DNA of 63,622 bases, counting the filler, from Folioceros fuciformis (lineage: Eukaryota): assembly GCA_049999805.1 (NCBI GenBank). It is 9 parts of 9 records of this genome, joined end to end, with 100 filler letters (N's around TTAATTAATTAA, not from the genome) between each part and the next. Parts side by side here need not be neighbours in the genome. Positions count along the whole stretch, not along the records: positions 1 to 10,831 come from JBNGIO010004390.1; 8 more parts are not named here. One strand, 5' to 3'. Below, piece after piece: positions 3,244 to 60,234 of this stretch (the first letter of the stretch is position 1; every line of letters begins with the position of its first letter). Made by a program: the position numbers and the translations under genes. The notes below the pieces were generated by a model. The model was given only the letters and a program-made list of their open reading frames with translations. It made no database searches and was not told where the DNA came from.

Positions 3244-3468
3244 TAGTTAGAGATGCATATGCGGAAGCGTCTTGCATCAAGCAGATGCTTTATTAACAAT
3301 AATATGTTTGGTTCATAGGTGGGCTTATAAAGGATGGTTACGAGGGGGTGTGTCCTTTCACTAGGCTGCTAGTTAACTAACTACCAACTAGCTAAGTCTA
3401 GTTTGATTAATCCACATTGGGTCTGGTCTAGTCGACCTTAACCAACGTAGTCTGCACTATTTCTAACT
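3240..3468 (-). repeat. Putative 3' LTR of the older minus-strand copia
   Basis: On the minus strand a purine tract (GAGAAGGAG, ~3469-3477) is followed by AGTTAG..., then TATAA and AATAAA, ending ...TAATCA; lies downstream of that element's RNase H stop; no partner LTR in window. Confidence 0.45.
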
Positions 3469-3694
3469 CTCCTTCTCAGACACGTTGAGTTATCTGAGAT
3501 CTCCGTAAAACAAAAGGAGACCACTCATTGTCGGAGTCTTGCAATGTGCTACAGTCTTCCCCTCGCCTGTCTCAACTCGCGGTCGTACTCCCTCGCCCTA
3601 AGGCTGGCTCTCCGGCGGCTCACGGAGTAGTACACCGGTTGTGGCCAGGGCAGAAGCAAGCTGTCTGCAACAACTGTCAACTTCAAGTGATGGA

Positions 3695-3795
3695 ACAAAA
3701 GATGATAAGCCTCACCATATGAGTGACTTGTCTAGCGTCATAAAGCTACTACAGTCTACTAATCCAAGCCCTTCTCTATGCAAGCAGTGTTTAAA
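3695..3795. repeat. Left copy of ~101-bp duplication flanking the copia insertion
   Basis: ACAAAAGATGATAAGCC...GCAGTGTTTAAA, repeated at 9715-9815 with one mismatch (3778 A vs 9798 G). Confidence 0.95.
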
Positions 3796-3938
3796 TGTTG
3801 GAAATTAAACCCCGTTAGGGTTAGCGTTTCGTTTATGTCATAATTAAGCGAATAGCCACTTAGCGAATAGTTACGACGTTTCAGGAAAACACCTTAAAAA
3901 CCCTTGTTGCAATTTCCTGAAAATTAATTAACCTGATA
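3796..3938 (+). repeat. 5' LTR (143 bp, TG...TA)
   Basis: TGTTGGAAATT...AACCTGATA, identical to 9572-9714. Confidence 0.95.
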
Positions 3939-3950
3939 TGGTATCAGAGC
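3939..3950 (+). promoter_or_regulatory. Primer binding site (tRNA-iMet)
   Basis: TGGTATCAGAGC immediately after the 5' LTR. Confidence 0.95.
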
Positions 3951-4597
3951 ACATCTAATCCTACAATTTTTTTTTTATCACCTTCCGCTACAATAACAAT
4001 GAAGACAAGGCACTTATACAATCTCTGGTCCTAGCCGCTCTCTTCAGGAGAGCATTTAGAGCAAAAGGGGACCAGACAATGTTCTTGTCTCGACCGCGGC
4101 GGTGAGGATGTGTCTCGTCCGAGTGAACCTTCAGGCGGTTGTTTCCTTTTGACATGACATCAAGAACGAACGGCAAAGCAAGGCGCCTGTCTGTGTTGTG
4201 CTTTTTTTGTCGCNNNNNNNNNNNNNNNNNNNNNNNNNNNNNNNNNNNNNNNNNNNNNNNNNNNNNNNNNNNNNNNNNNNNNNNNNNNNNNNNNNNNNNN
4301 NNNNNNNNNNNNNTCGTAGCCGCCTGATCCTGCACATGAATTCATGAATGAAAACCCTCCACGCTGTCTGCAGATGTGAAAATTCGTCAGCGGAGAAGGT
4401 TAGCTCCATGCGATTGCTGATCGCCTGCAGCTAATTCCTCCCTGAAAACGGTTTTGCACATCTGCCGTTTTTTTTTTTCTGGCGCTGTCGATCCCGTGTT
4501 TCCGATTGTTTCTCTCTGAGGTGACCAATGTGAGGTTGTCGGCCTGATCAATTGACATATCTCCCATTTTGCTCCCTCAGATTAACAGTCAAACACG

Positions 4598-5359
4598 ATG
4601 TCAGTCGAGCGCCGACGCGGAGGGCAAGGTGATCTCAGTGCAGGAGGAGGAGGCTTTGGAGAAGGTGGCAGCGGGAGCGCGGGAGGCACTCCAGACAGTT
4701 CTCCCCCTCCGACTCCCTCTGCCGTCTTACCTCAGCCTACTTATGTTGCTGAATTCAAAGAGCGTGATCGCTTCAATGGTACCAAGTTTGAAAGCTGGCG
4801 TGTTCGTATGACTGCAGCCCTGCAAGCAAGACATGTGTGGGGTGTGGTAGATGGGACAATTACGAAGCCGTCAATAACTTCCACATCAGAGGAGAAATCA
4901 AGGTGGGAGAACCTGAATAGTGTCGCTCGTGCGGTATTGATCAGTGGTCTCGATGAAGTTCTCCTCCCAGATGTGGCATTTATTTCTAAGGCTGAGGACA
5001 TATGGAACCAACTGCTGCAAACTTATGAAGTAAAGAACATTCTCACCATGTGTGCTGTGAGAGGCGAGCTCTTTTCTCTACGACTCAAAGAGGGAGAAAA
5101 AGTTTCACCTTTCATTCTTCGTTTTCGTCAGCTTCGAGCACAATTGATCCATCTGGGTTCATCGTTTCCCGATTTGGATGCTGTTGCTCAGTTACTTACT
5201 AGTCTGCCTCCTAGCTACCAACCGTTCGTGTCCAGCTATGGGTCTACCCTCCGTGAAGCTGACAGAGCTGTTGCCTTAGGTCTTCCTTCGCGCATCAATT
5301 TCACTGATGTGGTCGGTGCTTTGCTGCAAGAGGAGCAAAGCCGTGTTAGTTCCACATAG
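4598..5359 (+). CDS. gag: Copia Gag, N-terminal/capsid-like (UBN2-type) part
   Basis: FNGTKFESWRVRM, WGVVDG, LLTSLPPSY, LLQEE motifs; ends at an in-frame TAG. Confidence 0.9.
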   Translation: MSVERRRGGQGDLSAGGGGFGEGGSGSAGGTPDSSPPPTPSAVLPQPTYVAEFKERDRFNGTKFESWRVRMTAALQARHVWGVVDGTITKPSITSTSEEKSRWENLNSVARAVLISGLDEVLLPDVAFISKAEDIWNQLLQTYEVKNILTMCAVRGELFSLRLKEGEKVSPFILRFRQLRAQLIHLGSSFPDLDAVAQLLTSLPPSYQPFVSSYGSTLREADRAVALGLPSRINFTDVVGALLQEEQSRVSST

Positions 5360-5362
5360 CAT

Positions 5363-8300
5363 ATGGGACGCACAAAACTTGACAAGGTCCTGTATGCTAA
5401 GAACAAGAACACGCGAGGCAGATTTTCACCTGGTGCTTCAACTTCGAAGCCTTCAACTTCCCAGAAACGAGTAGGTGCATGCAATTGGTGCGGTATCCAA
5501 GGACACTGGGAAAGAGAATGTAGGAAGAAGAAATCTGGTGAGCCCCGTCGAGTTGAGAAGCCTGTTCGTCCGGCTGAAGCTCATGTGACTGCAACCCGAG
5601 ATCGTTCTTCTTCCCTTTCCAGCAAACCTCCCGTTGTGATGACGGTTTGCTTGGCCTCCTCTCTCCCATCTCTTCCACACGTTTGGTACCTAGATTCAGG
5701 TGCAACGTCACACATTTGCAATGATAAATCGCTATTTACTCACTACCGGTCCTCATCTTTACGAGATAAGGTCCTCTTGGGTGATGAGATAACACGGACA
5801 GGTCTGTCCATCAGGGGGAGTGGCACTTGCCGTTTTCGTCTTCTTGATGGCTCAGTCCTTTACTTGGATCATGTGTTGCATGTTCCTCATATGGCTAAGA
5901 ATCTCCTTTCTGTTAGCCAGCTTCTATCCTTGCATCAGCTTGACCTGTACTTCACTGCCACAGGATGTGTGTTAGTGAAGAAAGGGGGAGATAGACAAGA
6001 GGTCGTTGCTGATGGCAAATTAGTGCATGATCTTTATCAGATGAATCTGACATGCGTAACTAGGGATTCGGTCAATTTAGCACATCTTTCTCAAGCTGCT
6101 GTTGCCAGTCTTTGGCATGCCAGATTAGGTCATGCTAACCGTGATAAACTGATTAGGCTTTCTGGTCTTACCTGTTATAGGGAACCCCTGCCAAAATGTT
6201 TCCAGGATCTTCCTTTGTGCGATGCATGCGTAGTTGCTAAACAAAAGGAGCTCCCCTTCCCTAGAACTGTCGCTCATCGTGCATCCAGTGTGTTAGAGTT
6301 GGTGCACGCTGATATATCTGGTAAGATACATATTCCTAGTTTGGGAGGAGCCCAGTACTACTTTACACTTACGGATGATTATAGCAGGTATTCATGGACT
6401 TACCCCATCCGGTTGAAGTCCGATACTTTCAGTGTTTTTAAGGACTGGCTGCCTGTTGTTCAGAAGCAAACTGGTTGTTCCTTGAAGTGCCTCCGATCAG
6501 ACAACGGGACAGAGTTCGTACACTCTCACTTTACCCAATTCCTTACTGATCATGGCATACTTCGGCAGTTGATTATTCCCTACACCCAGCAACAGAACGG
6601 GGTTGCGGAAAGACGAAATCAAACACTGCTTGGAATGACAAGGAGTATGCTTGAGTGGTCAGGATTAAGTAAAGGTTTCTGGGCAGAGGCAGTGGTAACC
6701 GCAACTTACATCCTCAATCGTTTGTTAACAAAGGCAGTGGTAGATAAGACACCTTTTGAGGTTGTCTGGCGGCAAAAGCCTAGTCTCCTCCATCTTCGTG
6801 TCTTCGGTTCTCCCGCTTACGCCTATATTCCAAAGAACAAACGGAAGAAATTGGAAGCCAGAGGGAAGCCACTTATATTTGTCGGATATGGAGAAGAGGT
6901 GAAAGCCTACAAGCTATACGATACCTTTTCCAAGGAAGCCGTTTATGCTCGAAGTGTAACCTTTAAGGAAATTATCGTACCTGCTAAACCGTTCTTCGAT
7001 TCTCTGCCACATAACCAGTCTTCTGTTGAACATATCGATGCTTTTGAGGATGAAGATGTTTCAGAGTATCCTTCAGATGATTCCCCTGCTACTTCTGTAC
7101 CTGGTTCCTTGGGGCCAGATACATCTGCAGTTTTCTCTGAAGAACAGGACTCCTCTTACTTACCACAATTAGAAAGGGAAATTGCTGGTTCCCAAGTTGG
7201 TATGGCTGATGTTTTAGATCAGCCACATGCATCTGAGCAGGATCAAGCCGCGACGGGTATACCTACCTCCTCCTTCACATCTGATGCCCATTCAGATGTT
7301 CCTCCAGATGCTTCACCTGCTATACCGTCTGAGGAGCCTCCCCATGCTACAATTCCTGTGGTAATTCCACCATCCATGGATGCCACTGAATCAAGATATC
7401 CTCGTCGGTCTCGTCCACCTCCTTCAGAGTGGGTGGAGCCACCATATGCCTCAATTGATTTTCGTCATTCAAGAGCTGGCGTTGCTTTGCTGGATTCTGC
7501 TGAGCAACCCTTTTCTAAGCTCGAACCTCGCACATATACCGAGGCCATTACAGGACTTGATAAACATCACTGGCAGCCGTCCATTCAAGATGAATATAAT
7601 TCACTCATCAAGAATTCCACTTGGGAGCTCTGTCCTCTTCCCGCAGGCAGAAAAGTTATTAGCTGCAAGTGGGTATTTAAACACAAACTTAACGCTGAAG
7701 GCCAGATTTCCAGATACAAGTCTTGCCTTGTTGCTCGCGGGTTTACTCAAATTCCTGGTGTGGATTTCACTGAAACCTTTAGTCCGGTTGTGAAAACCCA
7801 ATCTATACGCATGATCATTGCTCTTGCTGCTGCCTATGAATGGGATCTTCAACAAATGGACGTCTGTACGGCATTCCTGTATGGCGAGTTAGAAGAGGAT
7901 ATTTACATGCAGCAGCCCGAGGGCTTTGCGGATCCTGAACACCCAGATTGGGTCTGTCGACTAAAGAAGACCATCTACGGTTTAAAGCAGTCAGCACGGG
8001 AGTGGTATAAGGCCATCGACAAATACCTTAAGTCCATCGGCTTTATACAAAATCCTGGTGATGCTAATGTCTACTTGTACTCCCAGAATGGTAAACTGGT
8101 GATTTTGGCGTTGTACGTCGATGATGCCATTCTGGCTTCAAACAACCCTGAACTTTTAGCTTGGGTAAAGCAGATGCTGCACAGCAAATATGACATGAAA
8201 GACATCGGTCCACTTACTTTCGTTTTGGGGGTACAGTTGGTTCGTGAGCCAGCCTCTCGTACCATTTTTCTCCATCAGGCTAAGTATATTGCAGAGACTC

Positions 8301-9100
8301 TTCGACGATTTCATCTTGATTCTTCGAAGCCTGTTTCTACTCCTGGCCCAGTTGGTGCTAAGCTCTCTCGCAATCAGTGCCCTCAGACTGATGTAGATCG
8401 GCAAGCTATGTCTCCAGTGCCCTATCGCCATGCAGTTGGTTGTCTCAATTACATCAGCTGCTGGACTCGCCCGGACATCCAGTACTCGGTTAGTGTCGTT
8501 TCTCAATTTATGGACAATCCTGGAAAGGAGCACTGGGGTGCCGTTAAACGGATTTTGCGTTACCTGAAAGGCACTCAACAGTATGGGCTCTGCTTCCGGG
8601 GGCGATCTCGGGATCAGGCTCTGTGTGGTTTTGCCGATGCTGATTGGGCCACCGACCCTGATGCTCGTCGAAGCATCTCCGCATACTGTTTTCTTCTCTC
8701 CGATTCTGCTGTGCACTGGGCTGCAAAGAAACAAGCTAGTGTTGCCCTCTCCTCGACGGAAGCGGAATACAAATCCTTGACCGAAGCAGCCAAGGAGGCC
8801 ATTTGGGAACGCAGTTTCCTCAGTGGTTTAGGAGTTCTGCCATCTCAACCCACTGTGATCTCGTGTGACAATATGTCCACGATTGCTATGACTGCCAATC
8901 CGCGATTTCACGCAAGAACTAAGCACATCGAGGTGCATCACCATTTTATTCGCCACTCTGTGCAAGAAAAGGAAGTACAAATTGAGTATATCCCTACAGA
9001 GGAGAATCCTGCTGATCTTCTCACAAAATTTCTGCCTTCCTCTCTACATGCGCGACATGTGGCTACTCTGGGAGTCACAGATTTCTCTCTCGCGAGCTAA
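5363..9100 (+). CDS. pol: Copia zinc knuckle-protease-integrase-RT-RNase H polyprotein
   Basis: CNWCGIQGHWEREC, WYLDSGATSH, WHARLGH...CDAC, HAD/RSDNG/NGVAER, QMDV, YGLKQS, LYVDD, ADADWA, SSTEAEY, KHIEV, ADLLTK; same frame as gag. Confidence 0.97.
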   Translation: MGRTKLDKVLYAKNKNTRGRFSPGASTSKPSTSQKRVGACNWCGIQGHWERECRKKKSGEPRRVEKPVRPAEAHVTATRDRSSSLSSKPPVVMTVCLASSLPSLPHVWYLDSGATSHICNDKSLFTHYRSSSLRDKVLLGDEITRTGLSIRGSGTCRFRLLDGSVLYLDHVLHVPHMAKNLLSVSQLLSLHQLDLYFTATGCVLVKKGGDRQEVVADGKLVHDLYQMNLTCVTRDSVNLAHLSQAAVASLWHARLGHANRDKLIRLSGLTCYREPLPKCFQDLPLCDACVVAKQKELPFPRTVAHRASSVLELVHADISGKIHIPSLGGAQYYFTLTDDYSRYSWTYPIRLKSDTFSVFKDWLPVVQKQTGCSLKCLRSDNGTEFVHSHFTQFLTDHGILRQLIIPYTQQQNGVAERRNQTLLGMTRSMLEWSGLSKGFWAEAVVTATYILNRLLTKAVVDKTPFEVVWRQKPSLLHLRVFGSPAYAYIPKNKRKKLEARGKPLIFVGYGEEVKAYKLYDTFSKEAVYARSVTFKEIIVPAKPFFDSLPHNQSSVEHIDAFEDEDVSEYPSDDSPATSVPGSLGPDTSAVFSEEQDSSYLPQLEREIAGSQVGMADVLDQPHASEQDQAATGIPTSSFTSDAHSDVPPDASPAIPSEEPPHATIPVVIPPSMDATESRYPRRSRPPPSEWVEPPYASIDFRHSRAGVALLDSAEQPFSKLEPRTYTEAITGLDKHHWQPSIQDEYNSLIKNSTWELCPLPAGRKVISCKWVFKHKLNAEGQISRYKSCLVARGFTQIPGVDFTETFSPVVKTQSIRMIIALAAAYEWDLQQMDVCTAFLYGELEEDIYMQQPEGFADPEHPDWVCRLKKTIYGLKQSAREWYKAIDKYLKSIGFIQNPGDANVYLYSQNGKLVILALYVDDAILASNNPELLAWVKQMLHSKYDMKDIGPLTFVLGVQLVREPASRTIFLHQAKYIAETLRRFHLDSSKPVSTPGPVGAKLSRNQCPQTDVDRQAMSPVPYRHAVGCLNYISCWTRPDIQYSVSVVSQFMDNPGKEHWGAVKRILRYLKGTQQYGLCFRGRSRDQALCGFADADWATDPDARRSISAYCFLLSDSAVHWAAKKQASVALSSTEAEYKSLTEAAKEAIWERSFLSGLGVLPSQPTVISCDNMSTIAMTANPRFHARTKHIEVHHHFIRHSVQEKEVQIEYIPTEENPADLLTKFLPSSLHARHVATLGVTDFSLAS

Positions 9101-9571
9101 GTGATCCTTGGACAGCTGTGCGACTGCAGACTTTGGCGGATGAAGCTCTCCTTCAGATTGAATCGCCATCTTCCTGCAGTCCTCGGTGTTCTGCTGCACG
9201 TCTTGGAGTCTTCGGCAGCGGACATCCTGCTGCTTGCTTCAGCTGATGCTTCAGTTGGAGCTCTTCCACCGTTTTCTCAGCCCCTGCAGTTCTGGTTTTA
9301 CGCTTCAGTGACAGCATGCACATCAGCTGGATTTTCCATCCCGCTGCTCTCCATCTCTACTCCATCGTGCACGTCTTCTCCACATTATGCTGTGCTTTGC
9401 GTCGCTCGTGCTGTGGTTGTGTCGTGCCAGGCTGTGCATTCTTTCCCTGTTGCTGGTGAAGGATGTATATTGCGATTGCCAGGACGCACAGGTTCAGAAT
9501 GACGAGGAGTGTTTCTCCCATTCTGCTCTCGCGTTTCCGTCGCTAACCTGGCCGATTCGCTTACGGGGGCG

Positions 9572-9714
9572 TGTTGGAAATTAAACCCCGTTAGGGTTAG
9601 CGTTTCGTTTATGTCATAATTAAGCGAATAGCCACTTAGCGAATAGTTACGACGTTTCAGGAAAACACCTTAAAAACCCTTGTTGCAATTTCCTGAAAAT
9701 TAATTAACCTGATA
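9572..9714 (+). repeat. 3' LTR (143 bp)
   Basis: Identical to 3796-3938. Confidence 0.95.
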
Positions 9715-9815
9715 ACAAAAGATGATAAGCCTCACCATATGAGTGACTTGTCTAGCGTCATAAAGCTACTACAGTCTACTAATCCAAGCCCTTCTCTGTG
9801 CAAGCAGTGTTTAAA
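9715..9815. repeat. Right copy of ~101-bp flanking duplication
   Basis: Matches 3695-3795 at 100/101. Confidence 0.95.
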
Positions 9816-10831
9816 CTTGGGCAAGGTTTTGGTCAGCACATCTGCTGTGTTGTCGTCTGTTGGTACATATTGTACCTTTACTATTACCCTTTCTGCAGCA
9901 TCACGAATATAGTGATGTTGAATCTCTATGTGTTTTGTGCGTGCATGGAACACAGGGTTAGCAACTAAAGCAATTGCTGACATGTTATCACAGTTAAGTA
10001 TTGTTGGCCCTTCCTGCGTCATACCCAGATCCTCACATAGCTTCCTTTCCCATTCAGCCTCTTTGGTGGCTTCAGTGAGAGCCTTGTACTCCGATTCTGT
10101 TGATGAAAGTGATATGGCTGCTTGTTTTCTACAAGACCAATTAACAACAGTGGAGCCAGCAAGAAAGCAATATGCTGAGATACTTTTCCGGGTGTCAGCA
10201 TCCGAAGCCCAATCTGCATTCACATAATATGTAAGCAGGAGGCGCTTCTTTCCGCTAGGTTTGTAGCATAGGCCATAATTTTGAGTACCCTTGAGGTACC
10301 GCATGATGTGTTTGAGAGCAACCCAGTGATCCCTCCCTGGATTCTCTAAGAACTGAGCAACAACATTCACGGTGTTTGAGATGTCTGGTCTTGTCTGATT
10401 ACTCAAGAACATGAGAGTGCCAACTCCCATGCGGTAGGGCACAGTCTCCATCTCCTTCTTGTCCTCTTCTGCTTGAGGGCAGGAAGCAGATGAGAGCTTA
10501 ACACCAACGGCACCTAGTGTGGCTGCCACTCGTGCGTTCTCCAAGTTGAAACGTTTTAGCATACCAGCTACATATCGTCCTTGATGAAGATAAATAGCTC
10601 CAGTGCTATCTCTATGTACATGCATTCCAAGAATATATTTAACTTTGCCGAGATCCTTCATCTCGAATTCTTTGCTTCTTCAGCTTTTATCTTGTTGACC
10701 AATTCAACAGTATTGCCTTGAATAACTAAGTCATTGACATATAGGGCAACAAGTGCAAGTGAGCTATCCTGACGAAGTACATAGATGTTAGTATCTGCTT
10801 CACTTTGGACGAACCCCAACTTCTTGAGATA
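9732..10831 (-). pseudogene. pol: Older copia RT/RNase H (target of the nested insertion)
   Basis: MKDLG, TRPDI, RYLKGT, SSTESEY, KHIEIQHH, ADVLTK; catalytic YVDD reads YVND near 10735-10745; frame disrupted upstream of 10661. Confidence 0.92.
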
Positions 10832-15300: not shown

Positions 15301-16006
15301 AAGGAGATCACGTGCGTCTTGCAGGCATGTGGGAACGTGGCGGAAAGCAACTACGGAAAAAAAAAAAACAAAAGTTTCGGAAAGCAATGGCATGCAAAGG
15401 TCAGAAAAAAAGAGCTTGAGGCTGATGTGCCCTACTCAGTAAATCTGTACTGCGGCATACCCATGGTGCAACATCAGAAATACAAGCACACATGTACGTG
15501 GGAAGTTTCCTCCGCCGTGCACGGGTCCAAAAAAGGTCTGCATATAGGCCGAAGAAAACATTTCTCAATATCGTCCCCACAAGAAAAAGAATTACATACA
15601 TCTGACAGTATCGTGAATAATATGTCCAGACACAGCGTCACAGCCTAGGAACGTGCTCCGAGAAAGCGGCTGAGAGCCCTTGGCCAAAAAATGAAGGACT
15701 AAAACACAACACTGTTCTGCAGGGTCTACCGCAGAACGGCACTTTTGAGCAACGCAAATTGCCCTTTCAGCAAATGCCCCTCCGTCTGTAGTGCATAGAC
15801 CGGAGATCGCTCGAAGGGATAGATCAGCAGATTATAAAATAGTCGTCGTCCAGCTTACTCCACAGTCCGCCAGGGTCCACCATTATTGATTGCTACAGTC
15901 CCGGGTCCACAGTTTGTGAAAGAACAAATAGGGACATCTGGCTGCTTCGGCAATCACAGATTGCAGAATTTTCGCTTGTGGGTGCAGAACTATTTGGAGC
16001 GAGGCC

Positions 16007-16379
16007 ATGACGAACCTGGCTTCTCTTCTCCTCTCCTACCTCCTGATCCTTGTGACTTAGTGGGGAAAAGAAGTTCTGGTCACTAATTTCATTTCGGGAA
16101 GAATGTCTAATGTATAATCAAGAGGCTACTTGTAGCATCTTGAGGAGTCAAGTCACTCGAGGAGACACGACTGTTCAACTAATGAGTCGCGACTGTTCAG
16201 ACCTCGATCGGTTGCAGCTTATATGAATGCATCTCTTCTCATACGGATCGTGGGTTCCGACGGCCTGGGCGGCCGCAAGCTGACCTGGCAAGCACCACAA
16301 GCTCAAGCTCACCCCGAAGCGGGAGAAGTTCCACCAACACAACTTCTTCCTGCACGACGATCTGCTGGTGTCCAATGCG
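16007..16379 (+). pseudogene. Truncated dirigent paralog
   Basis: ATGACGAACCTGGCTTCT... and TTCTTCCTGCACGACGATCTG match 23090-23262; interrupted by a ~190-bp insert and lacking the 3' part. Confidence 0.85.
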
Positions 16380-21696: not shown

Positions 21697-22942
21697 GCCT
21701 GTGTCTCAATCTCCGAAGCGATGAATGCTTCACTCGTGTAAAATCCTACGTGGCAGGCATGTCACGCCCCGTGCATCCAAAGACCCCCATACATCTAAGG
21801 CTAGCCAGCTCACATACGGTTTTCCCGCGATGCATTGCGCCATGCGCGTAAGCGCCCCTGGCAATAGGACCGAGCGGGCTGAACGAAAGCGTATTCGATC
21901 CCCCCCACGTCCGGTTGTCCCTGCACAAATTCCTCTTGAGCACGCCCACATCCACTCGCCCTTCAAGGGTCTGTCCACCTTCACTCCCCGGCTCGTCTCT
22001 CCTGCCGTGCCTACGTCTCAATCTAGGCAGGTGGGATCTGAGGGGGAGAAGGAGAGGATACCGGGGTGTGTTCGGATCAGGCGTGAAGGGTCGGCAGTGC
22101 CGGCTTTGGGCAGGGGAAGGAATTGGCGGAGAAAGGGTTTCAGGCTTTTGAGGGAGGCCGAGATCAGGCCGGGAAGAGGAAGGAAGGACGGGAAGGGGGT
22201 CGGGCTGGAGAGGAAGGATTTTAAGATCGCTTATGTTGGATGAATAGATTGGAGAGGAGGATTTTAAGATCGCCTATGTTGCATGAATAGACTGCAAATT
22301 TGTTTTAGGAAAAGGCCTGAAATGTGCTGCCAGTTTAGATTGTCGATGAAGAATTGCCCAAGCAGTGCATGGAATGCAGCACGTTTGCTTTCGCAGGCAG
22401 AACTTGGGTGAAGCACGGTCTGCAAGGAGTAGTGGGTTTACGTTTGAATTGAGAAAGCTCGATCGTTTGAACGAGGCTGGCAGGACTAACTACGAGCCCG
22501 CGCACCATTGCGTGATCTGAGACGATATATGTACATGATAGGAAATGTGGGTTACGCTTGGCATCTGTAGAGGAGTTTGCAACCTGATCTGAACGTGTAC
22601 AATTCTAGCTTCAATGGAAATGAAAACGCAAACAAATGTATATGAGTAAACCTCTCCCATCAAAAAGCACAGCAGCGTGGAGTGAGGAAATCGAAATCTC
22701 AGCGTTCTCCCGTGCTTCTTGATCGGGTAGACGTAAAACGAGGGCGGGAGGAGAGGAAGAGAGACGGGGGGAAGAGGGACGCCTACCGCGCTTAGGGTTA
22801 TGGCACAATGCGTCGCGGCAAAACCGTATGTGTGCTGGCTAGCCTTCAGCGTATGAAGGTCTTTGGATGGACGGGGCATGACATGCCACGTCCGATTTCA
22901 CACGAGTGAAGCATTTATTGCTTCGGAGATTGAGACGCAGCG
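21697..22942. mobile_element. Non-autonomous Mutator-like element (MULE)
   Basis: ~155-bp imperfect TIRs (GCCTGTGTCTCAATCTCCGAAGC.../...GCTTCGGAGATTGAGACGCAGCG); 9-bp TSD CAGTCCACC at 21688-21696 and 22943-22951; empty site in the paralog at 15863-15871. Confidence 0.92.
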
Positions 22943-23089
22943 CAGTCCACCAGGGTCCACCGTTGTCAGTTGCTCCAGCGCCCTGGTCCCACAGTTACTT
23001 TGAGAACATATAGTGATATCCGGCTTCCTTCGCCAGTCACAGCCTGCAGCATTTTCGCTTGTGGGTGCAGCATCACTTCGAGCGAAGCC

Positions 23090-23689
23090 ATGACGAACCT
23101 AGCTTCTCTTCTCCTCCCCTCCCTCCTGGTCCTCGCCGTGGTTGGATCGTGGATTCCGACGGCCTCGACGTCCAAGCACCACAATCTCAAGCTCAGCCCT
23201 AAGGACGAGAAGTTCCTACAGCTCAAATTCTTCCTGCACGACGATCTGTTGGTGTCCAACGCTAGCGCCTTCTTCATTGTGCCTCCGCTGGCGGGCATCC
23301 CCAAAGAGTTTTCCCTGGAAGGCAAGGCGTTCTTCGGCGGCGTGGTGGTGATCGACGACCCATTGACGGAGGGCCCCGATCCCAAATCCAAGAACATTGG
23401 CCAGGCCAAGGGCTTCTACGTGTGGGACGCCCTTGTGGGCGGCTCTGCCTTGGAGTTCGTCTTCACTGCGGTGTTCAACAAAGCGAGCGGATTCCGCCCA
23501 GGCACCACTTTGTCTTACCGCGGCAACGACAACCTTCCTGCCGATGTGCGGGAGATCGCCATCGTGGGAGGCACCGGGGACTTGAGGCTCGCCCGAGGCT
23601 GGGCCCAGTTTTCCGTGACCAAGGCTGTCCAGTTCGCCGCCGTCCTCAACTTCACCTCCTCCGTCTTCCACGGTGGTTATGCATCGTGA
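23090..23689 (+). CDS. DIR: Dirigent-like protein, intronless, 199 aa, secreted
   Basis: Signal peptide; FFLHD, FGGVVVIDDPLTEGPD, GQAKGFY, REIAIVGGTGDLRLARG. Confidence 0.93.
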   Translation: MTNLASLLLPSLLVLAVVGSWIPTASTSKHHNLKLSPKDEKFLQLKFFLHDDLLVSNASAFFIVPPLAGIPKEFSLEGKAFFGGVVVIDDPLTEGPDPKSKNIGQAKGFYVWDALVGGSALEFVFTAVFNKASGFRPGTTLSYRGNDNLPADVREIAIVGGTGDLRLARGWAQFSVTKAVQFAAVLNFTSSVFHGGYAS

Positions 23690-37387: not shown

Positions 37388-39090
37388 GTATTCTGCTCTC
37401 ATTTAACATGTGTAGTGAAGTAGTTAAAATGGACCTCTCGTCAAACTTCCTGAAACGGGCATGCGTAGCTCTGCCAGTACCCGGGTCATAGACCTTATAC
37501 CCCTTAATGCCTTCTGTGTAACCAACAAAGAGCATTTGTCTTGCCTTGTAGTCAAGCTTCGTTCGAACCTCTTTGGGTACATGTACGTAGACTTTGCACC
37601 CAAAGATTCTAAGATGTGATATCGTTCGCTTTCTGCCAGTCCAGCGCTCAAAAGGCGCGGAATTCATGAAGACTGCAGTAGGAAGTCGATTTAGAAGATA
37701 CGTGGCAGTATGTACCGCCTCAGCCCAATATCTCCTTGAAAATCTTGGCTGCTTCTTGCAGGTACCGATTTTTAGACGTTGCAAGCGGATTCTGACTAGA
37801 GGTATATGGAACCGTGATCTATCTGCAAATTCCAGACGACCTACAGTAAGTACTCTTGAAACTCACAGCCAGTAAACTCTCCACCTCCATCGCTTCGCAA
37901 AACCTTGACCTTATTTCCAGTTTGTCTTTGCGAATAGTTAACATAGTCAATAAATCTCTCCAAAGCCTCTAACTTGTGACGCAAAAAGTATGTAATTGTG
38001 AAACGAGTGTAATCGTCAACCAACACCATGAAATATAAGGCTCCTCCCAAAGATTTAACAGACATGGGCCCGCAAAGATCAATATGTACAACAGCTAGAG
38101 TTTCTGATGGTCTATTTTGTTCATGTGGCTTCTTAACATTCTGTTTAGGGAGCTTTGCATGCAGACAAGCCTCACAAAGCACATCTACATCTTGAATTGT
38201 CCAGGGCACGTCATCTTGGTACAGCTCCTTCCAACCATGTCTTTCATTTTGTTATAGTTTGGGTGCCCCAACCGACAGTGCCATAATAACTTAGTACTAT
38301 CTTCATCCAAACGTTTTGCTAAGTGCGCTCGAGCATGCAATTTGTCCAAGTCATTTTCAAAATGGGTGTGGTAGTCACGTCTATATAGATCAGAGTCAAG
38401 AGTTCCCAAGGCAACTACCATTTCTGTCTTGACATCAATAAGGTTGCACATGTTTTGATCAAAACTTACTTTCACGTTCCACTCCTGACATACATGTCTA
38501 ACAGATCATAGATTCTTAACCATCTGAGGTACATGCAGGACCTGCTTCAAACATCTGGTGGAACCATCCTTCAGTCGAATCTTCACGGTTCCAACTCCAC
38601 CAATATTGAGCCCACTCTCATCGCCCAGCAGGACAAATTGTCCAGGTGAATACTCTTGATAATCATTAAAGCTACTTCTGTTATAGCATATATGGGCAGA
38701 TGCCCCCGAGTCTATGAACCAAGAATGTTCATCAGACTTGGTGTGTGCAAGAAATACTGTCAAGATAATGTTCGAACTTGATGTCTTTGACTTAGTGATG
38801 ACATTTGCCTTTGGTGAGCTTGTCTTTCGTGGCTCGCTTGCACGTTTCTTACGACAGCCTGCCTCAATATGGCCCATGTATCTGCACCAGTTACATGTTA
38901 ACTTCTTGTGATTAGGATTAGAGGGAAGACGTGTTCCCACAGCTGTTGACCTGCTTTGCCAACTTGTCTGATTTGGGAATCTACCTCCTCTGCCGCCTCT
39001 TACTCCTCTCCCGGCGTAGAGAATGCGGCCATGCGAGGTTTGTGCTTGTGGCCTGCCTAAGTTCATCAAAGCCTCCTCTTCTAGTAGTGC

Positions 39091-40341
39091 TGTGAACCTC
39101 CAAAGTTTGGGGTAGTGGTTTGTTTTGGTTGAAAAAGGGTTAATAGTGGTATGGTTTGGTTTTCTTTTTCTACTTATTTTCCCTAATTTTTCTTGATTTT
39201 CTGGTCATTTTTCCTATTTTTCTTTATGCTAATTAGGTTAATTGACCAGGAAATAGTTGGTTTGGTTATAAGAGTGGGTATAGGTTTGGTCCCAGACCTG
39301 GGAAAGTTTAGGTCCGGTACCGGGCCATAGGGTTATTAAAGCCCAATGTGCTTAGACTAATGTAATCAGTTTAATTAGGCTAATGTGATTAGTCTATTTA
39401 GGCTAATGTAATTAGTCTAAGATTAGTGTCTAATTAATTATCATTAGTTTAGATTAGCTTAAGCTAATTTTTAGGAAGCTTCCTGCAGAGCTTCTTGTGA
39501 AGCTTCCTTGGGAGCTTTTCTAGAGGGTATAAATACCCTCTTGAGCTCCCTTTTCAAGGGAGATGAGAGAGATGAGAAAGATGAGAGAGATGGGAGAGAG
39601 CTGTGAGAGACATTGTGACCTCTCTTTCTCCTCTTCTCCTCTCTTCCTCTCCTCTCCTCTCCTCTTCTCCTTCATCATGTGGCTCCCTTTCTGATCCTTC
39701 AAGGATCACAAGGTGTAATGACCAGGGTGAAGGGGTTTGCCCCTAGCTCTTGATTGTAAAGGATGTGTCTTTCTCTCGACCTGTCCACTCTTGTTCCCTG
39801 TTTGGACAAGTGCTGTAGGCCGGTTATGTTTCATGGCGTCTGGTAAGGTTGTGGGGAGGAGATATCCGAGGGGGTGTGGGGGGAGAGTGTGATCCCTTCT
39901 TTCTTTCCTTTGGGGTTAGTCTAGTGACTCTTGCCGGGTAGGAGGAGTCACTAGGGAAGTGTAGAAGGTAGTGGTGTCATTGTTAGTTGCTGGTGCTGGT
40001 GCTGGTGCTGGTGCTAGAGTGAGAGAGCGAGTGAAGTGAGTGAGGGAAGTCGCAGATCTGAGAGGTTAGGGTCGTTGTAGTGACTGGAGTGAGTTTGTGG
40101 GCACCGAGAGAGAGGCAGCTGACCGCTGGACAGCGAGGCCTGTCCTACGCCTGATCGGAGCTGGAGGGGAGCCCTCGAATCCATCATCGAGTCGATCAAG
40201 TCCGACCCTCCATCCATAGCAACAAGGAACCCCATCGCTCCTTTGTGGGAACGAAACCCAATGTCTCAACGACAGTGGGATAAGTGTGGCCATTAAAGGT
40301 GGAACCCATTGGCAATCAGTGCCCGGGGTTTTGTCTCCACA
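39091..40341 (+). mobile_element. Solo LTR (1251 bp) inserted in copia gag
   Basis: TGTG...CACA ends; 5-bp TSD AGTGC at 39086-39090 and 40342-40346; empty site in the homolog near 55620-55640 (NTIGALLEEE). Confidence 0.92.
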
Positions 40342-40967
40342 AGTGCCCCAATAGTATTTGACAGTGAGACTGCTGTCGCTGCTGCTATTCGCAGATTACT
40401 GTTTTGTGTGCTCACAAAGACTCGATATCTGTCTGGCAGGGACATGAGGAGTGCAACTGATGCCTGGAGTTCAGAGACCTTCGTCCCTGCTGCTGCCAAC
40501 TTCTGCCTCAAATGCCTGAAGTACATCACATGCTCCTCAACTGTCTCAGATTCTTTCATCTTGCAATTCCAGAACAAGCGAGTGGCGTGGACCAACGACG
40601 ACTGGTTCGTCGTAGCAAACAACTGGGCCAAGGCTGTCCATGCCAGATGTGCTGTTGTGGCATCCTCTATGTGGTGTATCATACTATCATCAATAGTGAG
40701 TTCTAGGATGGCCCTGGCCTTCAAATCCATCTTATTCCATGCCCTAATGTCTGTTGTCGCTGCGTTTTGTCTTGGGTGAGGAGTAGAGCCATCCACCACC
40801 TCCCACATGTCTTCTATCATCCGAAGGGTCTTAACCCTGTGTGCCCAGACATCAGAGTTGGACCCCGAGAATCGGTCCTTGTCTTTAAAATCAAGTTTCA
40901 ATGAAGTCGTCATGGTTGGTTGAATTCTCTTGGCCTACCCCAGCGACGAGGTTGCCCAACCTCTCTC

Positions 40968-41456
40968 TTAGTTTTTCTGCGGAGGTGGCTCTCGTAAGTG
41001 GCATACGGGACATGCCACCTTAATAGGCTTGAGTGCATCCTCATTTTGTTGACAGTCTCTAACAGGGACTGATGATTGAATCACCGACGTCGCATCAAGA
41101 ATAATTTGCAGCCTTAGGAATACTCTCTCCATGATATGCTCTAAAACTGTGATATGATCATGCAACCCCTTAATCAAAGAAGGCAGTTGATCCGGTGAGC
41201 CTAAGCCCGCTCTACTAGCTGGGTGCCCCGATTGCTTACAGCATGAGCAAACAGGGTCTTCTTCTGAATGACTAAATGACTGCAAACAGGGTCTTCTTCT
41301 CGGTGTAGGTGCAGAAGAAAGGAGGTGCGGATTGTGGCAATCTCCGTACCTAAGGGTTCGAGAAAGCGTCTCTCCTATGCTTGACAGAAAGCTTGGGGAG
41401 ACATCCCTGCTCTGCCGATCTACACGGCGCCCTCTATCGCGGCCTCTGCGCGGCAT
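40968..41456 (-). CDS. Extra ORF upstream of gag (162 aa, Arg-rich N-terminus, Cys/His motifs)
   Basis: Open and collinear with 54429-54917, about 85% aa identity by eye, many silent differences. Confidence 0.65.
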   Translation of the reverse strand: MPRRGRDRGRRVDRQSRDVSPSFLSSIGETLSRTLRYGDCHNPHLLSSAPTPRRRPCLQSFSHSEEDPVCSCCKQSGHPASRAGLGSPDQLPSLIKGLHDHITVLEHIMERVFLRLQIILDATSVIQSSVPVRDCQQNEDALKPIKVACPVCHLREPPPQKN

Positions 41457-41823
41457 GGCGCACGCAATTCATGTGCATTAAGCCGCAGACAAAAAAGGTT
41501 GTGGGATGTCTAAAAGATGCACATACGCGCCAATCCGAGCAGCAGCTAGCCTGCAGATGTGGTCGCCAAGGCATGTAGACCGAGAATTGTGGGCAAGCAC
41601 ACACAAAATCTCATGTGCGCCCATGAATTTGCTGGCTTGCATACTGGGAACTGCAGGAGTTTGTTCGCGCAATACTGCAAAAGCCATTGCACGATTTTTG
41701 CAAGCACGCAATCACGACACCCCAAGAAATCTAGCCAAAGGCATTTGGTAGTGATTCCATATCATGCCATGCTTGATCTGAATGCCTGTGGATGCCACCA
41801 TCTGGAAACCCGCTCTGATACCA

Positions 41824-42028
41824 TAGAAAGTTTTAGATTGAACAAGCAAATTTGTATTACAGCTGAATGTTTTTAAAAACCACTCTTGACAGTTGGAAGC
41901 GGTTAGGTTACCCATTCACGGGATTTGTTCATATCTCGATATCTACATATATACAATAAACTAACTTATTCTATATAACTATTTCGATTTGCTACTGCTA
42001 GACTATACTAGCTTCAAGTATTTTTTTA
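41824..42028 (-). repeat. LTR (205 bp, TA...TA)
   Basis: Lies between PPT-like AAGTGGGAG and PBS TGGTATCAGAGC; homologous to 53178-53383 and 53896-54078. Confidence 0.8.
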
Positions 42029-44089
42029 CTCCCACTTAGGCTGGCTGGCAGCATGTCGAAAAAGGTTTAAGGTTTTTTTTTCTTCTTTCAATTCGAACCT
42101 GTTAATAGTTTGTGACTTGAGCTTGCTGGCGTCTGTGTGACTTGAACAACACCTAGACCAGTTGTGTGCCTCGCATGCTCACTCTTTCCCAATGCCTTTG
42201 TAAGCTGATCAGCAATATTGTTGACGGTGTTCACATAACTTAATTCAATCACTTTATCCTCGATTGCCTTGCGGATAAAGTGTTGTTTGACTTCTATGTG
42301 CCTCGTTCTGGAATGTGCGACAGGGTTTCTTGCAATCGCCATCGCTGACTGATTGTCACACCAAATGCAGGAAGGCTAACTCTGCTCATGTCCCAAGGTT
42401 TGCAAGAGAGATCTCATATGCATAACCTCTTGCGCTGCAGATGTGAGTGCTGAGTATTCAGCCTCAGTCGATGACAGAGCAACTACCGACTGCTTCTTCG
42501 AGGACCAGCTCACCAAGTTTCCGTCCAATTTCACACAGAAGGCAGAAGTAGATCTTCTCGTATCTCTGTCAGCTGCCCAGTCCGAATCCGAGTGACAAGT
42601 AAGCTCCAGCTGATTACTCGATTCCTTCTTATATTGCAAACCATAACCAGCTATGCCTTTAAGATAGCGCAGAATTCTCTTTGCTGCTGACCAGTGTTGT
42701 TGCCCCGGATTTGACAAGAACTGAGAAACGACTGAAGTAGCAAACGCAATATCTGGTCCCGTCCACGAACTCAACCACAGTAGACAGCCCACCAACATTC
42801 TGTACGGAACATGGGACATCTCCTGGGTTTCTACCTGGCTGCTAGGGCATTGTTCTTGTGTGAGTACTGCTCCAACTGCAACTGGAGTGGCTGCAGGATT
42901 TGCATCTTTCATATTAAACTTATCCAGAAGTCTGTCTACGTACTGTTTTTGGTGTAGCACAATTGTTCCAGATTGCTTATTGATCATAGCTTGTACTCCC
43001 AAGAAGAAAGTGCATTGCCCCATATCCATCATCTTAAACTCCAGCGACAGGATTCTTTTAACTTCATCGACTATATGCAAGGAGGACCCCATAATCAGGG
43101 TTTCATCTACATAAACAGCTAAGTATGTCACCTCATTACCTCGCCTGTAGATGTAGACACTTCCATCAGCTGCTGACTGCTTGAATCCATGCTTAAGCAA
43201 GAAATTATGCAATCGCCTGTTCCAGCACCTAGGCGCTTGTTTCAGCCCATACTATGTTTTCTTCAATCTACAGACATGTTTAGGGTGTTTCTTACTGACA
43301 AAACCTTCTGGTTGGCTCATGTAGACAGTCTCCTCTAGCACACCATTGAGAAAAGTGGTCTGTACATCCATTTGATGTACATTATATCCTTTGGCAGCTG
43401 CTATAGCTAACAGTGTCCTAACAGATGACGAGCGTACAACTGGGGAAAAAGTTTCATTATAATCAATGCCATCACGCTGGGAGAAACCACGCACCACTAG
43501 TCGAGCCTTGAAGCGTGCCGTGGTGCCATTAGGATTAAGTTTACGCTTGAAAACCCAGCGGTTCGAGATTGGTGTCCTACCAGGGGGTAAATCCTCCAAC
43601 ACCCATGTCTCATTTTCAATCAACGAGTTGAATTCTGAATTTATGGCTTCTAGCCATTTTTCTCTGTCCACTGACATGACTGCTTCTTGGTATGACTGCG
43701 GCTCCCCTAAGTCAGATGTTGCCATAAAAGCTTGGACTAACATGGCTGAATGTAGCTGGTGTCCCTCCATGGCATAAGGTACCTCATTCCACTGAAGAGG
43801 TGATGTGGTGTGTCTACGTGATGATCTTCGTGGCTGAGCTGCTATTGAATCCAAGGTTTGTTGAATGGTTTGGTCACTAGCACTACTCATGTGAGTTTGA
43901 CCATCTAAATCTGGAGCTCCCATTGACTCGTGATCACTGTCGTCATCTTTAGGGTCTGAAACCCCATGCTGATTTAGGGGTTTTCCAGATTCATCAACCA
44001 TTTCAGGATGTTGAGTCCTGCCATGGTTTGAATGGCTAGTTGACTGACCAACACTGCCGTATGTAACTTCATCTGTTTCNNNNNNNNNN

Positions 44090-47000
44090 GTATTCTGCTC
44101 TCATTTAACATGTGTAGTGAAGTAGTTAAAATGGACCTCTCGTCAAACTTCCTGAAACGGGCATGCGTAGCTCTGCCAGTACCCGGGTCATAGACCTTAT
44201 ACCCCTTAATGCCTTCTGTGTAACCAACAAAGAGCATTTGTCTTGCCTTGTAGTCAAGCTTCGTTCGAACCTCTTTGGGTACATGTACGTAGACTTTGCA
44301 CCCAAAGATTCTAAGATGTGATATCGTTCGCTTTCTGCCAGTCCAGCGCTCAAAAGGCGCGGAATTCATGAAGACTGCAGTAGGAAGTCGATTTAGAAGA
44401 TACGTGGCAGTATGTACCGCCTCAGCCCAATATCTCCTTGAAAATCTTGGCTGCTTCTTGCAGGTACCGATTTTTAGACGTTGCAAGCGGATTCTGACTA
44501 GAGGTATATGGAACCGTGATCTATCTGCAAATTCCAGACGACCTACAGTAAGTACTCTTGAAACTCACAGCCAGTAAACTCTCCACCTCCATCGCTTCGC
44601 AAAACCTTGACCTTATTTCCAGTTTGTCTTTGCGAATAGTTAACATAGTCAATAAATCTCTCCAAAGCCTCTAACTTGTGACGCAAAAAGTATGTAATTG
44701 TGAAACGAGTGTAATCGTCAACCAACACCATGAAATATAAGGCTCCTCCCAAAGATTTAACAGACATGGGCCCGCAAAGATCAATATGTACAACAGCTAG
44801 AGTTTCTGATGGTCTATTTTGTTCATGTGGCTTCTTAACATTCTGTTTAGGGAGCTTTGCATGCAGACAAGCCTCACAAAGCACATCTACATCTTGAATT
44901 GTCCAGGGCACGTCATCTTGGTACAGCTCCTTCCAACCATGTCTTTCATTTTGTTATAGTTTGGGTGCCCCAACCGACAGTGCCATAATAACTTAGTACT
45001 ATCTTCATCCAAACGTTTTGCTAAGTGCGCTCGAGCATGCAATTTGTCCAAGTCATTTTCAAAATGGGTGTGGTAGTCACGTCTATATAGATCAGAGTCA
45101 AGAGTTCCCAAGGCAACTACCATTTCTGTCTTGACATCAATAAGGTTGCACATGTTTTGATCAAAACTTACTTTCACGTTCCACTCCTGACATACATGTC
45201 TAACAGATCATAGATTCTTAACCATCTGAGGTACATGCAGGACCTGCTTCAAACATCTGGTGGAACCATCCTTCAGTCGAATCTTCACGGTTCCAACTCC
45301 ACCAATATTGAGCCCACTCTCATCGCCCAGCAGGACAAATTGTCCAGGTGAATACTCTTGATAATCATTAAAGCTACTTCTGTTATAGCATATATGGGCA
45401 GATGCCCCCGAGTCTATGAACCAAGAATGTTCATCAGACTTGGTGTGTGCAAGAAATACTGTCAAGATAATGTTCGAACTTGATGTCTTTGACTTAGTGA
45501 TGACATTTGCCTTTGGTGAGCTTGTCTTTCGTGGCTCGCTTGCACGTTTCTTACGACAGCCTGCCTCAATATGGCCCATGTATCTGCACCAGTTACATGT
45601 TAACTTCTTGTGATTAGGATTAGAGGGAAGACGTGTTCCCACAGCTGTTGACCTGCTTTGCCAACTTGTCTGATTTGGGAATCTACCTCCTCTGCCGCCT
45701 CTTACTCCTCTCCCGGCGTAGAGAATGCGGCCATGCGAGGTTTGTGCTTGTGGCCTGCCTAAGTTCATCAAAGCCTCCTCTTCTAGTAGTGCTGTGAACC
45801 TCCAAAGTTTGGGGTAGTGGTTTGTTTTGGTTGAAAAAGGGTTAATAGTGGTATGGTTTGGTTTTCTTTTTCTACTTATTTTCCCTAATTTTTCTTGATT
45901 TTCTGGTCATTTTTCCTATTTTTCTTTATGCTAATTAGGTTAATTGACCAGGAAATAGTTGGTTTGGTTATAAGAGTGGGTATAGGTTTGGTCCCAGACC
46001 TGGGAAAGTTTAGGTCCGGTACCGGGCCATAGGGTTATTAAAGCCCAATGTGCTTAGACTAATGTAATCAGTTTAATTAGGCTAATGTGATTAGTCTATT
46101 TAGGCTAATGTAATTAGTCTAAGATTAGTGTCTAATTAATTATCATTAGTTTAGATTAGCTTAAGCTAATTTTTAGGAAGCTTCCTGCAGAGCTTCTTGT
46201 GAAGCTTCCTTGGGAGCTTTTCTAGAGGGTATAAATACCCTCTTGAGCTCCCTTTTCAAGGGAGATGAGAGAGATGAGAAAGATGAGAGAGATGGGAGAG
46301 AGCTGTGAGAGACATTGTGACCTCTCTTTCTCCTCTTCTCCTCTCTTCCTCTCCTCTCCTCTCCTCTTCTCCTTCATCATGTGGCTCCCTTTCTGATCCT
46401 TCAAGGATCACAAGGTGTAATGACCAGGGTGAAGGGGTTTGCCCCTAGCTCTTGATTGTAAAGGATGTGTCTTTCTCTCGACCTGTCCACTCTTGTTCCC
46501 TGTTTGGACAAGTGCTGTAGGCCGGTTATGTTTCATGGCGTCTGGTAAGGTTGTGGGGAGGAGATATCCGAGGGGGTGTGGGGGGAGAGTGTGATCCCTT
46601 CTTTCTTTCCTTTGGGGTTAGTCTAGTGACTCTTGCCGGGTAGGAGGAGTCACTAGGGAAGTGTAGAAGGTAGTGGTGTCATTGTTAGTTGCTGGTGCTG
46701 GTGCTGGTGCTGGTGCTAGAGTGAGAGAGCGAGTGAAGTGAGTGAGGGAAGTCGCAGATCTGAGAGGTTAGGGTCGTTGTAGTGACTGGAGTGAGTTTGT
46801 GGGCACCGAGAGAGAGGCAGCTGACCGCTGGACAGCGAGGCCTGTCCTACGCCTGATCGGAGCTGGAGGGGAGCCCTCGAATCCATCATCGAGTCGATCA
46901 AGTCCGACCCTCCATCCATAGCAACAAGGAACCCCATCGCTCCTTTGTGGGAACGAAACCCAATGTCTCAACGACAGTGGGATAAGTGTGGCCATTAAAG

Positions 47001-50000: not shown

Positions 50001-50781
50001 CAAAACCTTCTGGTTGGCTCATGTAGACAGTCTCCTCTAGCACACCATTGAGAAAAGTGGTCTGTACATCCATTTGATGTACATTATATCCTTTGGCAGC
50101 TGCTATAGCTAACAGTGTCCTAACAGATGACGAGCGTACAACTGGGGAAAAAGTTTCATTATAATCAATGCCATCACGCTGGGAGAAACCACGCACCACT
50201 AGTCGAGCCTTGAAGCGTGCCGTGGTGCCATTAGGATTAAGTTTACGCTTGAAAACCCAGCGGTTCGAGATTGGTGTCCTACCAGGGGGTAAATCCTCCA
50301 ACACCCATGTCTCATTTTCAATCAACGAGTTGAATTCTGAATTTATGGCTTCTAGCCATTTTTCTCTGTCCACTGACATGACTGCTTCTTGGTATGACTG
50401 CGGCTCCCCTAAGTCAGATGTTGCCATAAAAGCTTGGACTAACATGGCTGAATGTAGCTGGTGTCCCTCCATGGCATAAGGTACCTCATTCCACTGAAGA
50501 GGTGATGTGGTGTGTCTACGTGATGATCTTCGTGGCTGAGCTGCTATTGAATCCAAGGTTTGTTGAATGGTTTGGTCACTAGCACTACTCATGTGAGTTT
50601 GACCATCTAAATCTGGAGCTCCCATTGACTCGTGATCACTGTCGTCATCTTTAGGGTCTGAAACCCCATGCTGATTTAGGGGTTTTCCAGATTCATCAAC
50701 CATTTCAGGATGTTGAGTCCTGCCATGGTTTGAATGGCTAGTTGACTGACCAACACTGCCGTATGTAACTTCATCTGTTTC
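44090..50781 (-). mobile_element. Second copy of 37388-44079 (assembly duplicate; solo LTR 45793-47043, extra ORF 47670-48158, LTR 48526-48730)
   Basis: Identical ORF set at offset 6702, separated by N10. Confidence 0.93.
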
Positions 50782-50881: not shown

Positions 50882-52099
50882 GCCGCTGCCACCTTGAGCA
50901 GCAGGAGCAGGCATCTTTGCCGATCCTTGCTGCTGAGAGGAGGCGGCTGTTCTAGTCGGCTTGCTCACAAACCGCCCTAGCTTGTCACGATGGCAGACAC
51001 AACGCTTTGCAGGAGGGGAGTCAGTAGCTGAAGACGTCATCTTGAGCTCAGAGATCCTACGCCCCAACGGCTTACAAATAAAGGACTTGAAGCGAGGAGG
51101 GATGCTATAAGGGTCGCGACACACCTGCTACCTAAGTTTGTGCACTAGTTTGCTACCCTAGTTTTATCACTAGAAATATCATTTATAGGTATGCATTCTA
51201 GTAGTGATAATCAAGTTGCAATTTGTTCATTATGATATGAAAGTCTAAAAACCGACTAATCTTGCACTAAATGGTAAACTTTAGTCAAGCAATGGTCAAC
51301 TAGCACCTAACATAATGTGTTCACATTCACAAACGATAAACTCTAGTCACGTATTGGCCAACTAGCACCCAACATGATGTGTTCACATTCACAAAGAATA
51401 AACTCTAATTGGGCATTAACTAACTAGCACCTAACATGATGTGATCAAATTCACAAATAAGAACTAACTTAAAAGGTCAAAACATNNNNNNNNNNGCCGC
51501 TGCCACCTTGAGCAGCAGGAGCAGGCATCTTTGCCGATCCTTGCTGCTGAGAGGAGGCGGCTGTTCTAGTCGGCTTGCTCACAAACCGCCCTAGCTTGTC
51601 ACGATGGCAGACACAACGCTTTGCAGGAGGGGAGTCAGTAGCTGAAGACGTCATCTTGAGCTCAGAGATCCTACGCCCCAACGGCTTACAAATAAAGGAC
51701 TTGAAGCGAGGAGGGATGCTATAAGGGTCGCGACACACCTGCTACCTAAGTTTGTGCACTAGTTTGCTACCCTAGTTTTATCACTAGAAATATCATTTAT
51801 AGGTATGCATTCTAGTAGTGATAATCAAGTTGCAATTTGTTCATTATGATATGAAAGTCTAAAAACCGACTAATCTTGCACTAAATGGTAAACTTTAGTC
51901 AAGCAATGGTCAACTAGCACCTAACATAATGTGTTCACATTCACAAACGATAAACTCTAGTCACGTATTGGCCAACTAGCACCCAACATGATGTGTTCAC
52001 ATTCACAAAGAATAAACTCTAATTGGGCATTAACTAACTAGCACCTAACATGATGTGATCAAATTCACAAATAAGAACTAACTTAAAAGGTCAAAACAT
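50882..52099. repeat. 604-bp unit written twice around N10; contains a ~62-bp tandem repeat (3 copies)
   Basis: 50882-51485 = 51496-52099; AACTAGCACCTAACATGATGTGTTCACATTCACAAA unit. Confidence 0.9.

Positions 52100-59265: not shown

Positions 59266-59318
<53 letters not shown>

Positions 59319-60181: not shown

Positions 60182-60234
<53 letters not shown>

Follow-up and report, generated by a model that had tools for sequence, protein, structure and literature searches.

A Ty1/copia element of Folioceros fuciformis flanked by a 101-bp duplication of target DNA, probably the product of one faulty integration

Among surveyed long terminal repeat (LTR) elements of plants, the target site duplication (TSD) is 5 bp long in 93.4% of cases (Neumann et al. 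2019, PMC6317226), and plant surveys give TSDs of 4-6 bp but also select for them (PMC6317226, PMC6911290). In the endogenous retrovirus HERV-K (HML-2), flanking duplications of more than 10 bp were recorded at 8 of 451 sites; six long TSDs there measure 61, 96, 111, 206, 250 and 450 bp with 0-3 mismatches, two long-TSD sites were validated by polymerase chain reaction through their empty alleles, and a rival 'pseudo-TSD' explanation was discussed (Kahyo et al. 2017, PMC5488345). In avian sarcoma-leukosis virus (ASLV) and human immunodeficiency virus type 1 (HIV-1), one bad DNA end leads to host-made duplications of hundreds of bp, the aberrant end being often, not always, truncated and usually joined at short homology (Varadarajan et al. 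2016, PMC5041404). Here we describe a Ty1/copia LTR retrotransposon inserted into an older copia and flanked by 101-bp direct repeats, found in a 63,622-nucleotide stretch of the Folioceros fuciformis genome (hereafter the window; NCBI GenBank assembly GCA_049999805.1). The feature is real, probably a true 101-bp target duplication derived from one faulty integration, and the event is rare but of a kind known from retroviruses.

The locus occupies the first scaffold of the window (G000:C4390, 10,831 bases), within an assembly of 87 Mb in 7,240 contigs. No plant copia element with a long TSD was found in the literature, in a search that was thin on subscription papers.

The duplicated target and the inserted element

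The 101 bp to the left of the 5' LTR are repeated directly to the right of the 3' LTR, with matches at 100 of 101 positions (A at 3778, G at 9798; Table 1). BLAST aligns the two copies over 102 bp (99.0% identity, E 3e-45), one base further, to 3694/9714, because the last base of the LTR equals the host base at 3694. The 5-mers at the two junctions, TTAAA and ACAAA, do not match, and the longest duplication of the flanks is the one of 101 bp; shifted LTR boundaries, or an older tandem repeat combined with a short TSD, were rejected, as they yield no matching 3-6-mers. The repeat belongs to an older, minus-strand copia: 84 nt come from the RNase H end and include the stop codon, and 17 nt come from the 3' untranslated region (UTR). 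Six other copies of this host family hold the stretch once each, and in all of them it runs unbroken into both flanks. A preliminary description of the locus had reported the near-perfect repeat, the lack of an ordinary TSD and the derivation of the repeat from target DNA, the RNase H end of an older opposite-strand copia, and on these three points it holds.

Both repeat copies carry a C at 3781/9801, a position at which all six of the closest host copies have G; a genome-wide pattern search for this site returned seven matches, two of them with C, both in scaffold C4390. Because this private C is shared, the sequences indicate that the two repeat copies descend from one host copy and that one of them has changed since. 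A third copy with the private allele, of the empty-site type, is absent from the one assembly searched. The same allele, shared by both repeats and absent elsewhere, disfavours the alternative given in the preliminary description, by which two members of the host family each received an insertion; a two-insertion history survives only if the targets were allelic, or newly duplicated, versions of a single host copy.

Each junction coincides to the base with an LTR terminus, the ends being whole and free of filler, which ties the event to integration. From its domain order, the insert is assigned to the Ty1/copia LTR retrotransposons: the Pfam matches run gag_2, Pol_BBD, gag_pre-integrs, rve, SH3_retrovirus and RVT_2, and an RNase H domain is presumed on the basis of its motifs. 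Two direct LTRs are present, with a primer-binding site (PBS) after the first that is presumably of the initiator-methionine transfer RNA type; the termini are TG...TA instead of TG...CA, and the duplication is 101 bp instead of 4-6 bp long. The in-frame stop in gag (5357-5359) is missing in all three other copies that cover that position.

A TSD of 5 bp, taken as the norm in the preliminary description, proved to be one: tabulated over the evaluable elements of the assembly, TSD length was 5 bp in 10 of 10 other elements, against 101 bp here. The survey covered 46 stretches, of which eight had both LTRs and both flanks; two further pairs were joined across contigs. The eight single-contig elements belong to other copia families, and one of their TSDs has a mismatch. 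The two joined pairs belong to the family of the inserted element, which has 12 LTR matches in two subfamilies; one (C4985/C5436) has the TSD TAATG, with an interrupted reverse transcriptase (RT) frame that resumes across the pair, and the other (C6237/C4356) the TSD CCATT, matched by the 5-mer alone because the stretch beyond it is N. Four LTR pairs were dropped owing to a gap, a contig end or an interrupted end (C6281, C6320, C570, C895), and the rest had no pair. Five family copies with no partner junction were unscorable (C5856, C1473, C5394, C6323, C32), so that this control is not selection-free. The host copia family and its relatives have LTRs of the form AG...CT, in most cases with a 6-bp terminal inverted repeat, and a 5-bp TSD in all five evaluable elements; copia elements with such ends would escape tools that require TG...CA.

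The insert had been called young; its LTRs are 100% identical, but it is not brand new: its body carries 23 private substitutions in 5,208 sites, a substitution being private when absent from the 2-5 other copies that cover the site. Seventeen of the 23 are C-to-T or G-to-A, and the repeat mismatch at 3778, a G-to-A in CHG context, is of the same kind. With all 23 taken as post-insertion, so that the expectations are upper bounds, decay at the rate of the body would leave the two repeat copies 0.89 mismatches apart, where one is seen, and the two LTRs 1.26 apart, where none is. Since the single mismatch matches the decay of the element, the duplication and the insertion appear compatible with one moment, in what is a low-power test.

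Probable aberrant integration and its rivals

Aberrant integration, as already proposed in the preliminary description, is the most likely origin of this arrangement, given the intact LTR-end junctions, the single host copy, the 5-bp norm and the match in age. In our judgement (the probabilities expressed here in words are judgements and were not computed), a single integration-coupled event is likely, whether it was completed by the host or by an integrase whose two strand transfers were uncoupled; a one-ended integration finished by host repair would, by itself, have roughly an even chance of being correct. In the latter case, one copia complementary DNA (cDNA) would have entered one older copia copy, presumably within a single molecule, and its ends would not have been joined 5 bp apart. 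The integrase would have joined U3, the putative good end, to the bottom strand between host positions 3795/9815 and 9816, and the altered U5 end with its 18-nt deletion would not have been transferred. Host repair may then have extended the free U5 3' end on target DNA 96 bp to the left, or ligated it there, and synthesis through the first nick would have duplicated 101 bp; these steps are patterned on those proposed for ASLV and HIV (PMC5041404).

As for the cause, the event had been linked to the TA at the U5 end, a link that is now weakened: TA terminates 7 of 10 family U5 ends (the other three have CA), and the TA-ended pair C6237/C4356 has a 5-bp TSD (a single case, dependent on 5-mer pairing). 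A better candidate is the deletion of 18 nt just inside the last 5 nt of U5, common only to the inserted copy and C5856, which may weaken that end. All seven long U5 ends, from both subfamilies, share their last 10 nt save for TA/CA, the rest of U5 being unlike between the subfamilies, and the three short U5 ends diverge from position -7 inward; the terminal 10-mer is a putative attachment site. The short variant may even be a transposition-competent sub-variant in which the deletion weakens one attachment site, such that one-ended integrations with long target duplications arise regularly, a proposal we regard as doubtful. If true, it would amount to a naturally occurring mutant by which the copia U5 attachment site is mapped further than its terminal dinucleotide, and would reveal a class of insertions thrown out by annotation tools that require a TSD. 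In C5856, the second copy of the short variant, the 3' junction is missing from the assembly and was untraceable in a host family of at least 40 copies at 95-98% identity.

Several observations weigh against one faulty integration. Truncation, a hallmark of host-repaired retroviral ends, is found at neither LTR end. Junction microhomology does not rise above that of 20 control ends: the U5 end shares 1 exact nt with the target and the U3 end none, and 5 of the 20 controls share 1-2 nt; each of the two ends also shows an offset 4-mer, for which the chance expectation is about 9% per end, and 3 of 20 normal ends reach at least 4 nt. The short U5 variant has been inserted at least twice, here and in C5856, so any U5 defect is only partial and the variant is not dead. 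Among wild-type HIV proviruses, aberrant ones numbered 0 of 99 and 0 of 85 (PMC5041404). The assembly gap lies where three other copies break (C5856 stops at the position equivalent to 4213, and the alignments of C1473 and C32 begin at 4314 and 4364), and another contig matches the scaffold tail at every base. Four other copies (C5856, C1473, C5394, C6323) also lack partner junctions in the assembly. Finally, the subfamily of the inserted element targets copia RT/RNase H at 4 of 5 sites, three antisense and one sense.

Microhomology was also considered as a marker of a failed end and was rejected, control ends being equal; with junction homology at the control level, the sequence cannot tell a failed end or who joined it. 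The leading rival is also a single-locus event. Two uncoupled integrase strand transfers would have hit opposite strands, or two sister chromatids, at points 101 nt apart, or a blunt cDNA would have been ligated into a long-staggered break; gap filling would then have produced the duplication. Neither LTR end has lost a base, junction homology is at the control level, and the shared private allele and the age match fit such an event as well. No positive sign sets it apart from host repair, however, and an intact end needs no integrase, as the PBS abuts the LTR and, by extension from Ty1, a cDNA end of that layout is expected to be flush even when unprocessed. No such spacing was found in the literature for a retrotransposon, and we hold this version to be possible rather than probable.

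The short variant could also have been inserted normally twice, in the same orientation and at sites 96 bp apart, in allelic or newly duplicated versions of one host copy; recombination, or an assembler bridging the gap, would then have brought the two insertions together as a pseudo-TSD. The break at the gap recurs more widely in the family, several copies starting or ending in the 5' UTR between 4100 and 4480, which suggests a sequencing or assembly drop-out. The tail may be either an assembly chimera or a recent conversion, as the 434 bp beside it (9715-10148) differ from the host copy on C6281 at 18 sites; its identity to C6281, together with the shared break spot, makes the long-range phase of scaffold C4390 unsafe. 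The preference of the subfamily for copia RT/RNase H also raises this rival (by comparison, elements of other families with tested flanks lie inside copia pol in only 3 of 9 cases), and in Physcomitrella same-family nested insertions occur at similar positions at least 50 bp apart (PMC6911290); the same paper states that coding regions are not commonly targeted, against 4 of 5 sites here in a small sample. A pseudo-TSD model has likewise been discussed for HML-2 (PMC5488345).

The partner junctions that two normal insertions would leave (9714 to 9811 and 3699 to 3796) are both absent from the assembly, a weak argument at this locus because they are missing for other copies too. Contigs assembled from public reads over 9100-10831 (two runs, one sample, one study) showed no joints, not even the left junction of the assembly, so that the lack of partner junctions there is uninformative; the contig depths of host pieces of the window type were unusable as a dosage test, at 14.6-19.4 against up to 33.8 in run X1 (low class) and 23.3 against up to 31.1 in run X2 (near the high class). 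Further objections come from the shared private allele, which rules out different known host copies, and from the balance already reached, the short variant being represented by two 5' ends and no more than two bodies (the inserted copy and perhaps C32). Even under full RT/RNase H targeting, the probability that a second insertion lands within 100 bp is about 1.4e-4 per pair, for a target of 982 PBS matches x 1.5 kb (an assumed size), against long duplications at about 1-2% of HML-2 sites (PMC5488345). We regard a history of two insertions as improbable.

The insertion could also have been a normal 5-bp one, altered afterwards when break repair or template switching drew 96 bp from the far side of the element or from an empty homolog. 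Such a history could account for the one mismatch as an allelic difference and, by construction, for 101 as 96 + 5; the new junction would have had to hit an LTR terminus by chance, with no filler and no deletion, and an older tandem repeat with a 5-bp TSD would have left matching 5-mers, of which there are none, so this sequence of events is quite unlikely. A pure assembly artefact, an overlap written twice, is very unlikely: the window does contain perfect tandem duplicates across 10-N gaps, but these are 100% identical and abut N runs, whereas the two copies of the 101-bp repeat differ at one position, are separated from the gap by 418 and 5401 bases and meet the LTR ends at two different junctions.

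Feature coordinates and neighbouring sequence

Table 1. Features of the inserted copia, its host copia and scaffold C4390, in window positions (PPT, polypurine tract; ORF, open reading frame)
Feature	Position	Strand	Remarks
Host copia 3' LTR	3245..3468	-	224 bp, AG...CT; 90-97% to LTRs of other host copies, same ends
Host copia PPT and 3' UTR, single copy	3469..3694	-	Continuous with six host-family copies, 92-97%
Left repeat copy	3695..3795	.	Private C at 3781; additional G-to-A at 3778
5' LTR of insert	3796..3938	+	143 bp, TG...TA; short variant, 18 nt of U5 missing just inside last 5 nt
Primer-binding site	3939..3950	+	Abuts LTR with no spacer; same layout in C5856, C4985, C6237
Assembly gap	4214..4313	.	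100 N, in 5' UTR of inserted copia; splits the two junctions apart
gag frame	4586..5359	+	From ORF list, Pfam PF14223; in-frame stop before zinc knuckle
Rest of gag, protease, integrase, RT, RNase H	5360..9100	+	Copia order
3' LTR of insert	9572..9714	+	Short variant, intact to last base, 100% identical to 5' LTR
Right repeat copy	9715..9815	.	Ancestral G at 9798; private C at 9801
Host copia frame for RT end and RNase H	9732..10679	-	ORF; tblastn to pol residues 1063-1243
Scaffold tail	10149..10831	.	683 bp, 100% identical to host copy on contig C6281

The perfect tandem duplicates across 10-N gaps lie at 37388-50781 (37388-44079 and 44090-50781), 50882-52099, 58553-60374, 60475-61830 and 61931-63622; we take them to be a typical product of a linked-read assembler, and they are not biological. 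To the left of the host LTR, an open frame of 335 aa with no Pfam match occupies 981-1988 on the minus strand. Further along the window, a dirigent-like gene (Pfam PF03018) is located at 22934-23689, with a diverged partial copy near 15863-16378; taken by itself, such a gene would indicate a land plant, probably a vascular one. Elsewhere in the assembly, a tandem array that includes the primer-binding site (G000:C354:630-990) has eleven PBS motifs, of which ten are spaced 33 bp apart. A public run, X3, gave short contigs over 9100-10831, with G-to-A runs and almost no shared words, a pattern as from a bisulfite-type library, and a methylation map of the locus may exist.

Comparison with described systems

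The inserted element resembles other plant Ty1/copia elements in its domain order, LTR pair and PBS, and it has sister copies with 5-bp TSDs (PMC6317226). Unlike the surveyed members of this group, it has TG...TA ends and a 101-bp duplication; the survey scored only elements with a TSD and TG/CA ends (PMC6317226), a demand by which copies such as this one are filtered out. If the duplication is confined to a single locus, some elements dismissed as recombinant for want of a TSD would be direct products of faulty integration. This is a single event in one gapped scaffold, and it changes no model.

The integrase-independent route of Tf1 relies on a target that is homologous to the PBS or PPT, and it leaves a truncated element (PMC11042837). 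It is comparable in that host recombination completes the insertion of an LTR element; as an explanation for this locus it was rejected, the right flank being unlike the PBS and both LTRs whole.

Closer parallels are found among retroviruses. As in the one-ended integrations of ASLV and HIV-1, a normal-looking end is combined with a large duplication of host DNA, and the mutated DNA end that is the cause in ASLV may have a counterpart in the 18-nt U5 deletion. The ASLV and HIV-1 cases are, in contrast, experimental and start from a known defect; their frequent truncation is not seen here, and homology at the junctions stays at the control level. With HML-2, the locus shares the character of a natural LTR element with a long, near-identical target duplication, as well as the same pseudo-TSD rival, and its 101-bp direct repeats could permit exact excision by recombination, as has been raised for HML-2 (PMC5488345). 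It differs from HML-2 in being a plant Ty1/copia nested in another copia with both LTR ends flush, known here from one gapped scaffold. Should the single-locus interpretation hold, a plant copia element would join primate endogenous retroviruses and experimental retroviral mutants among the cases of long target duplication.

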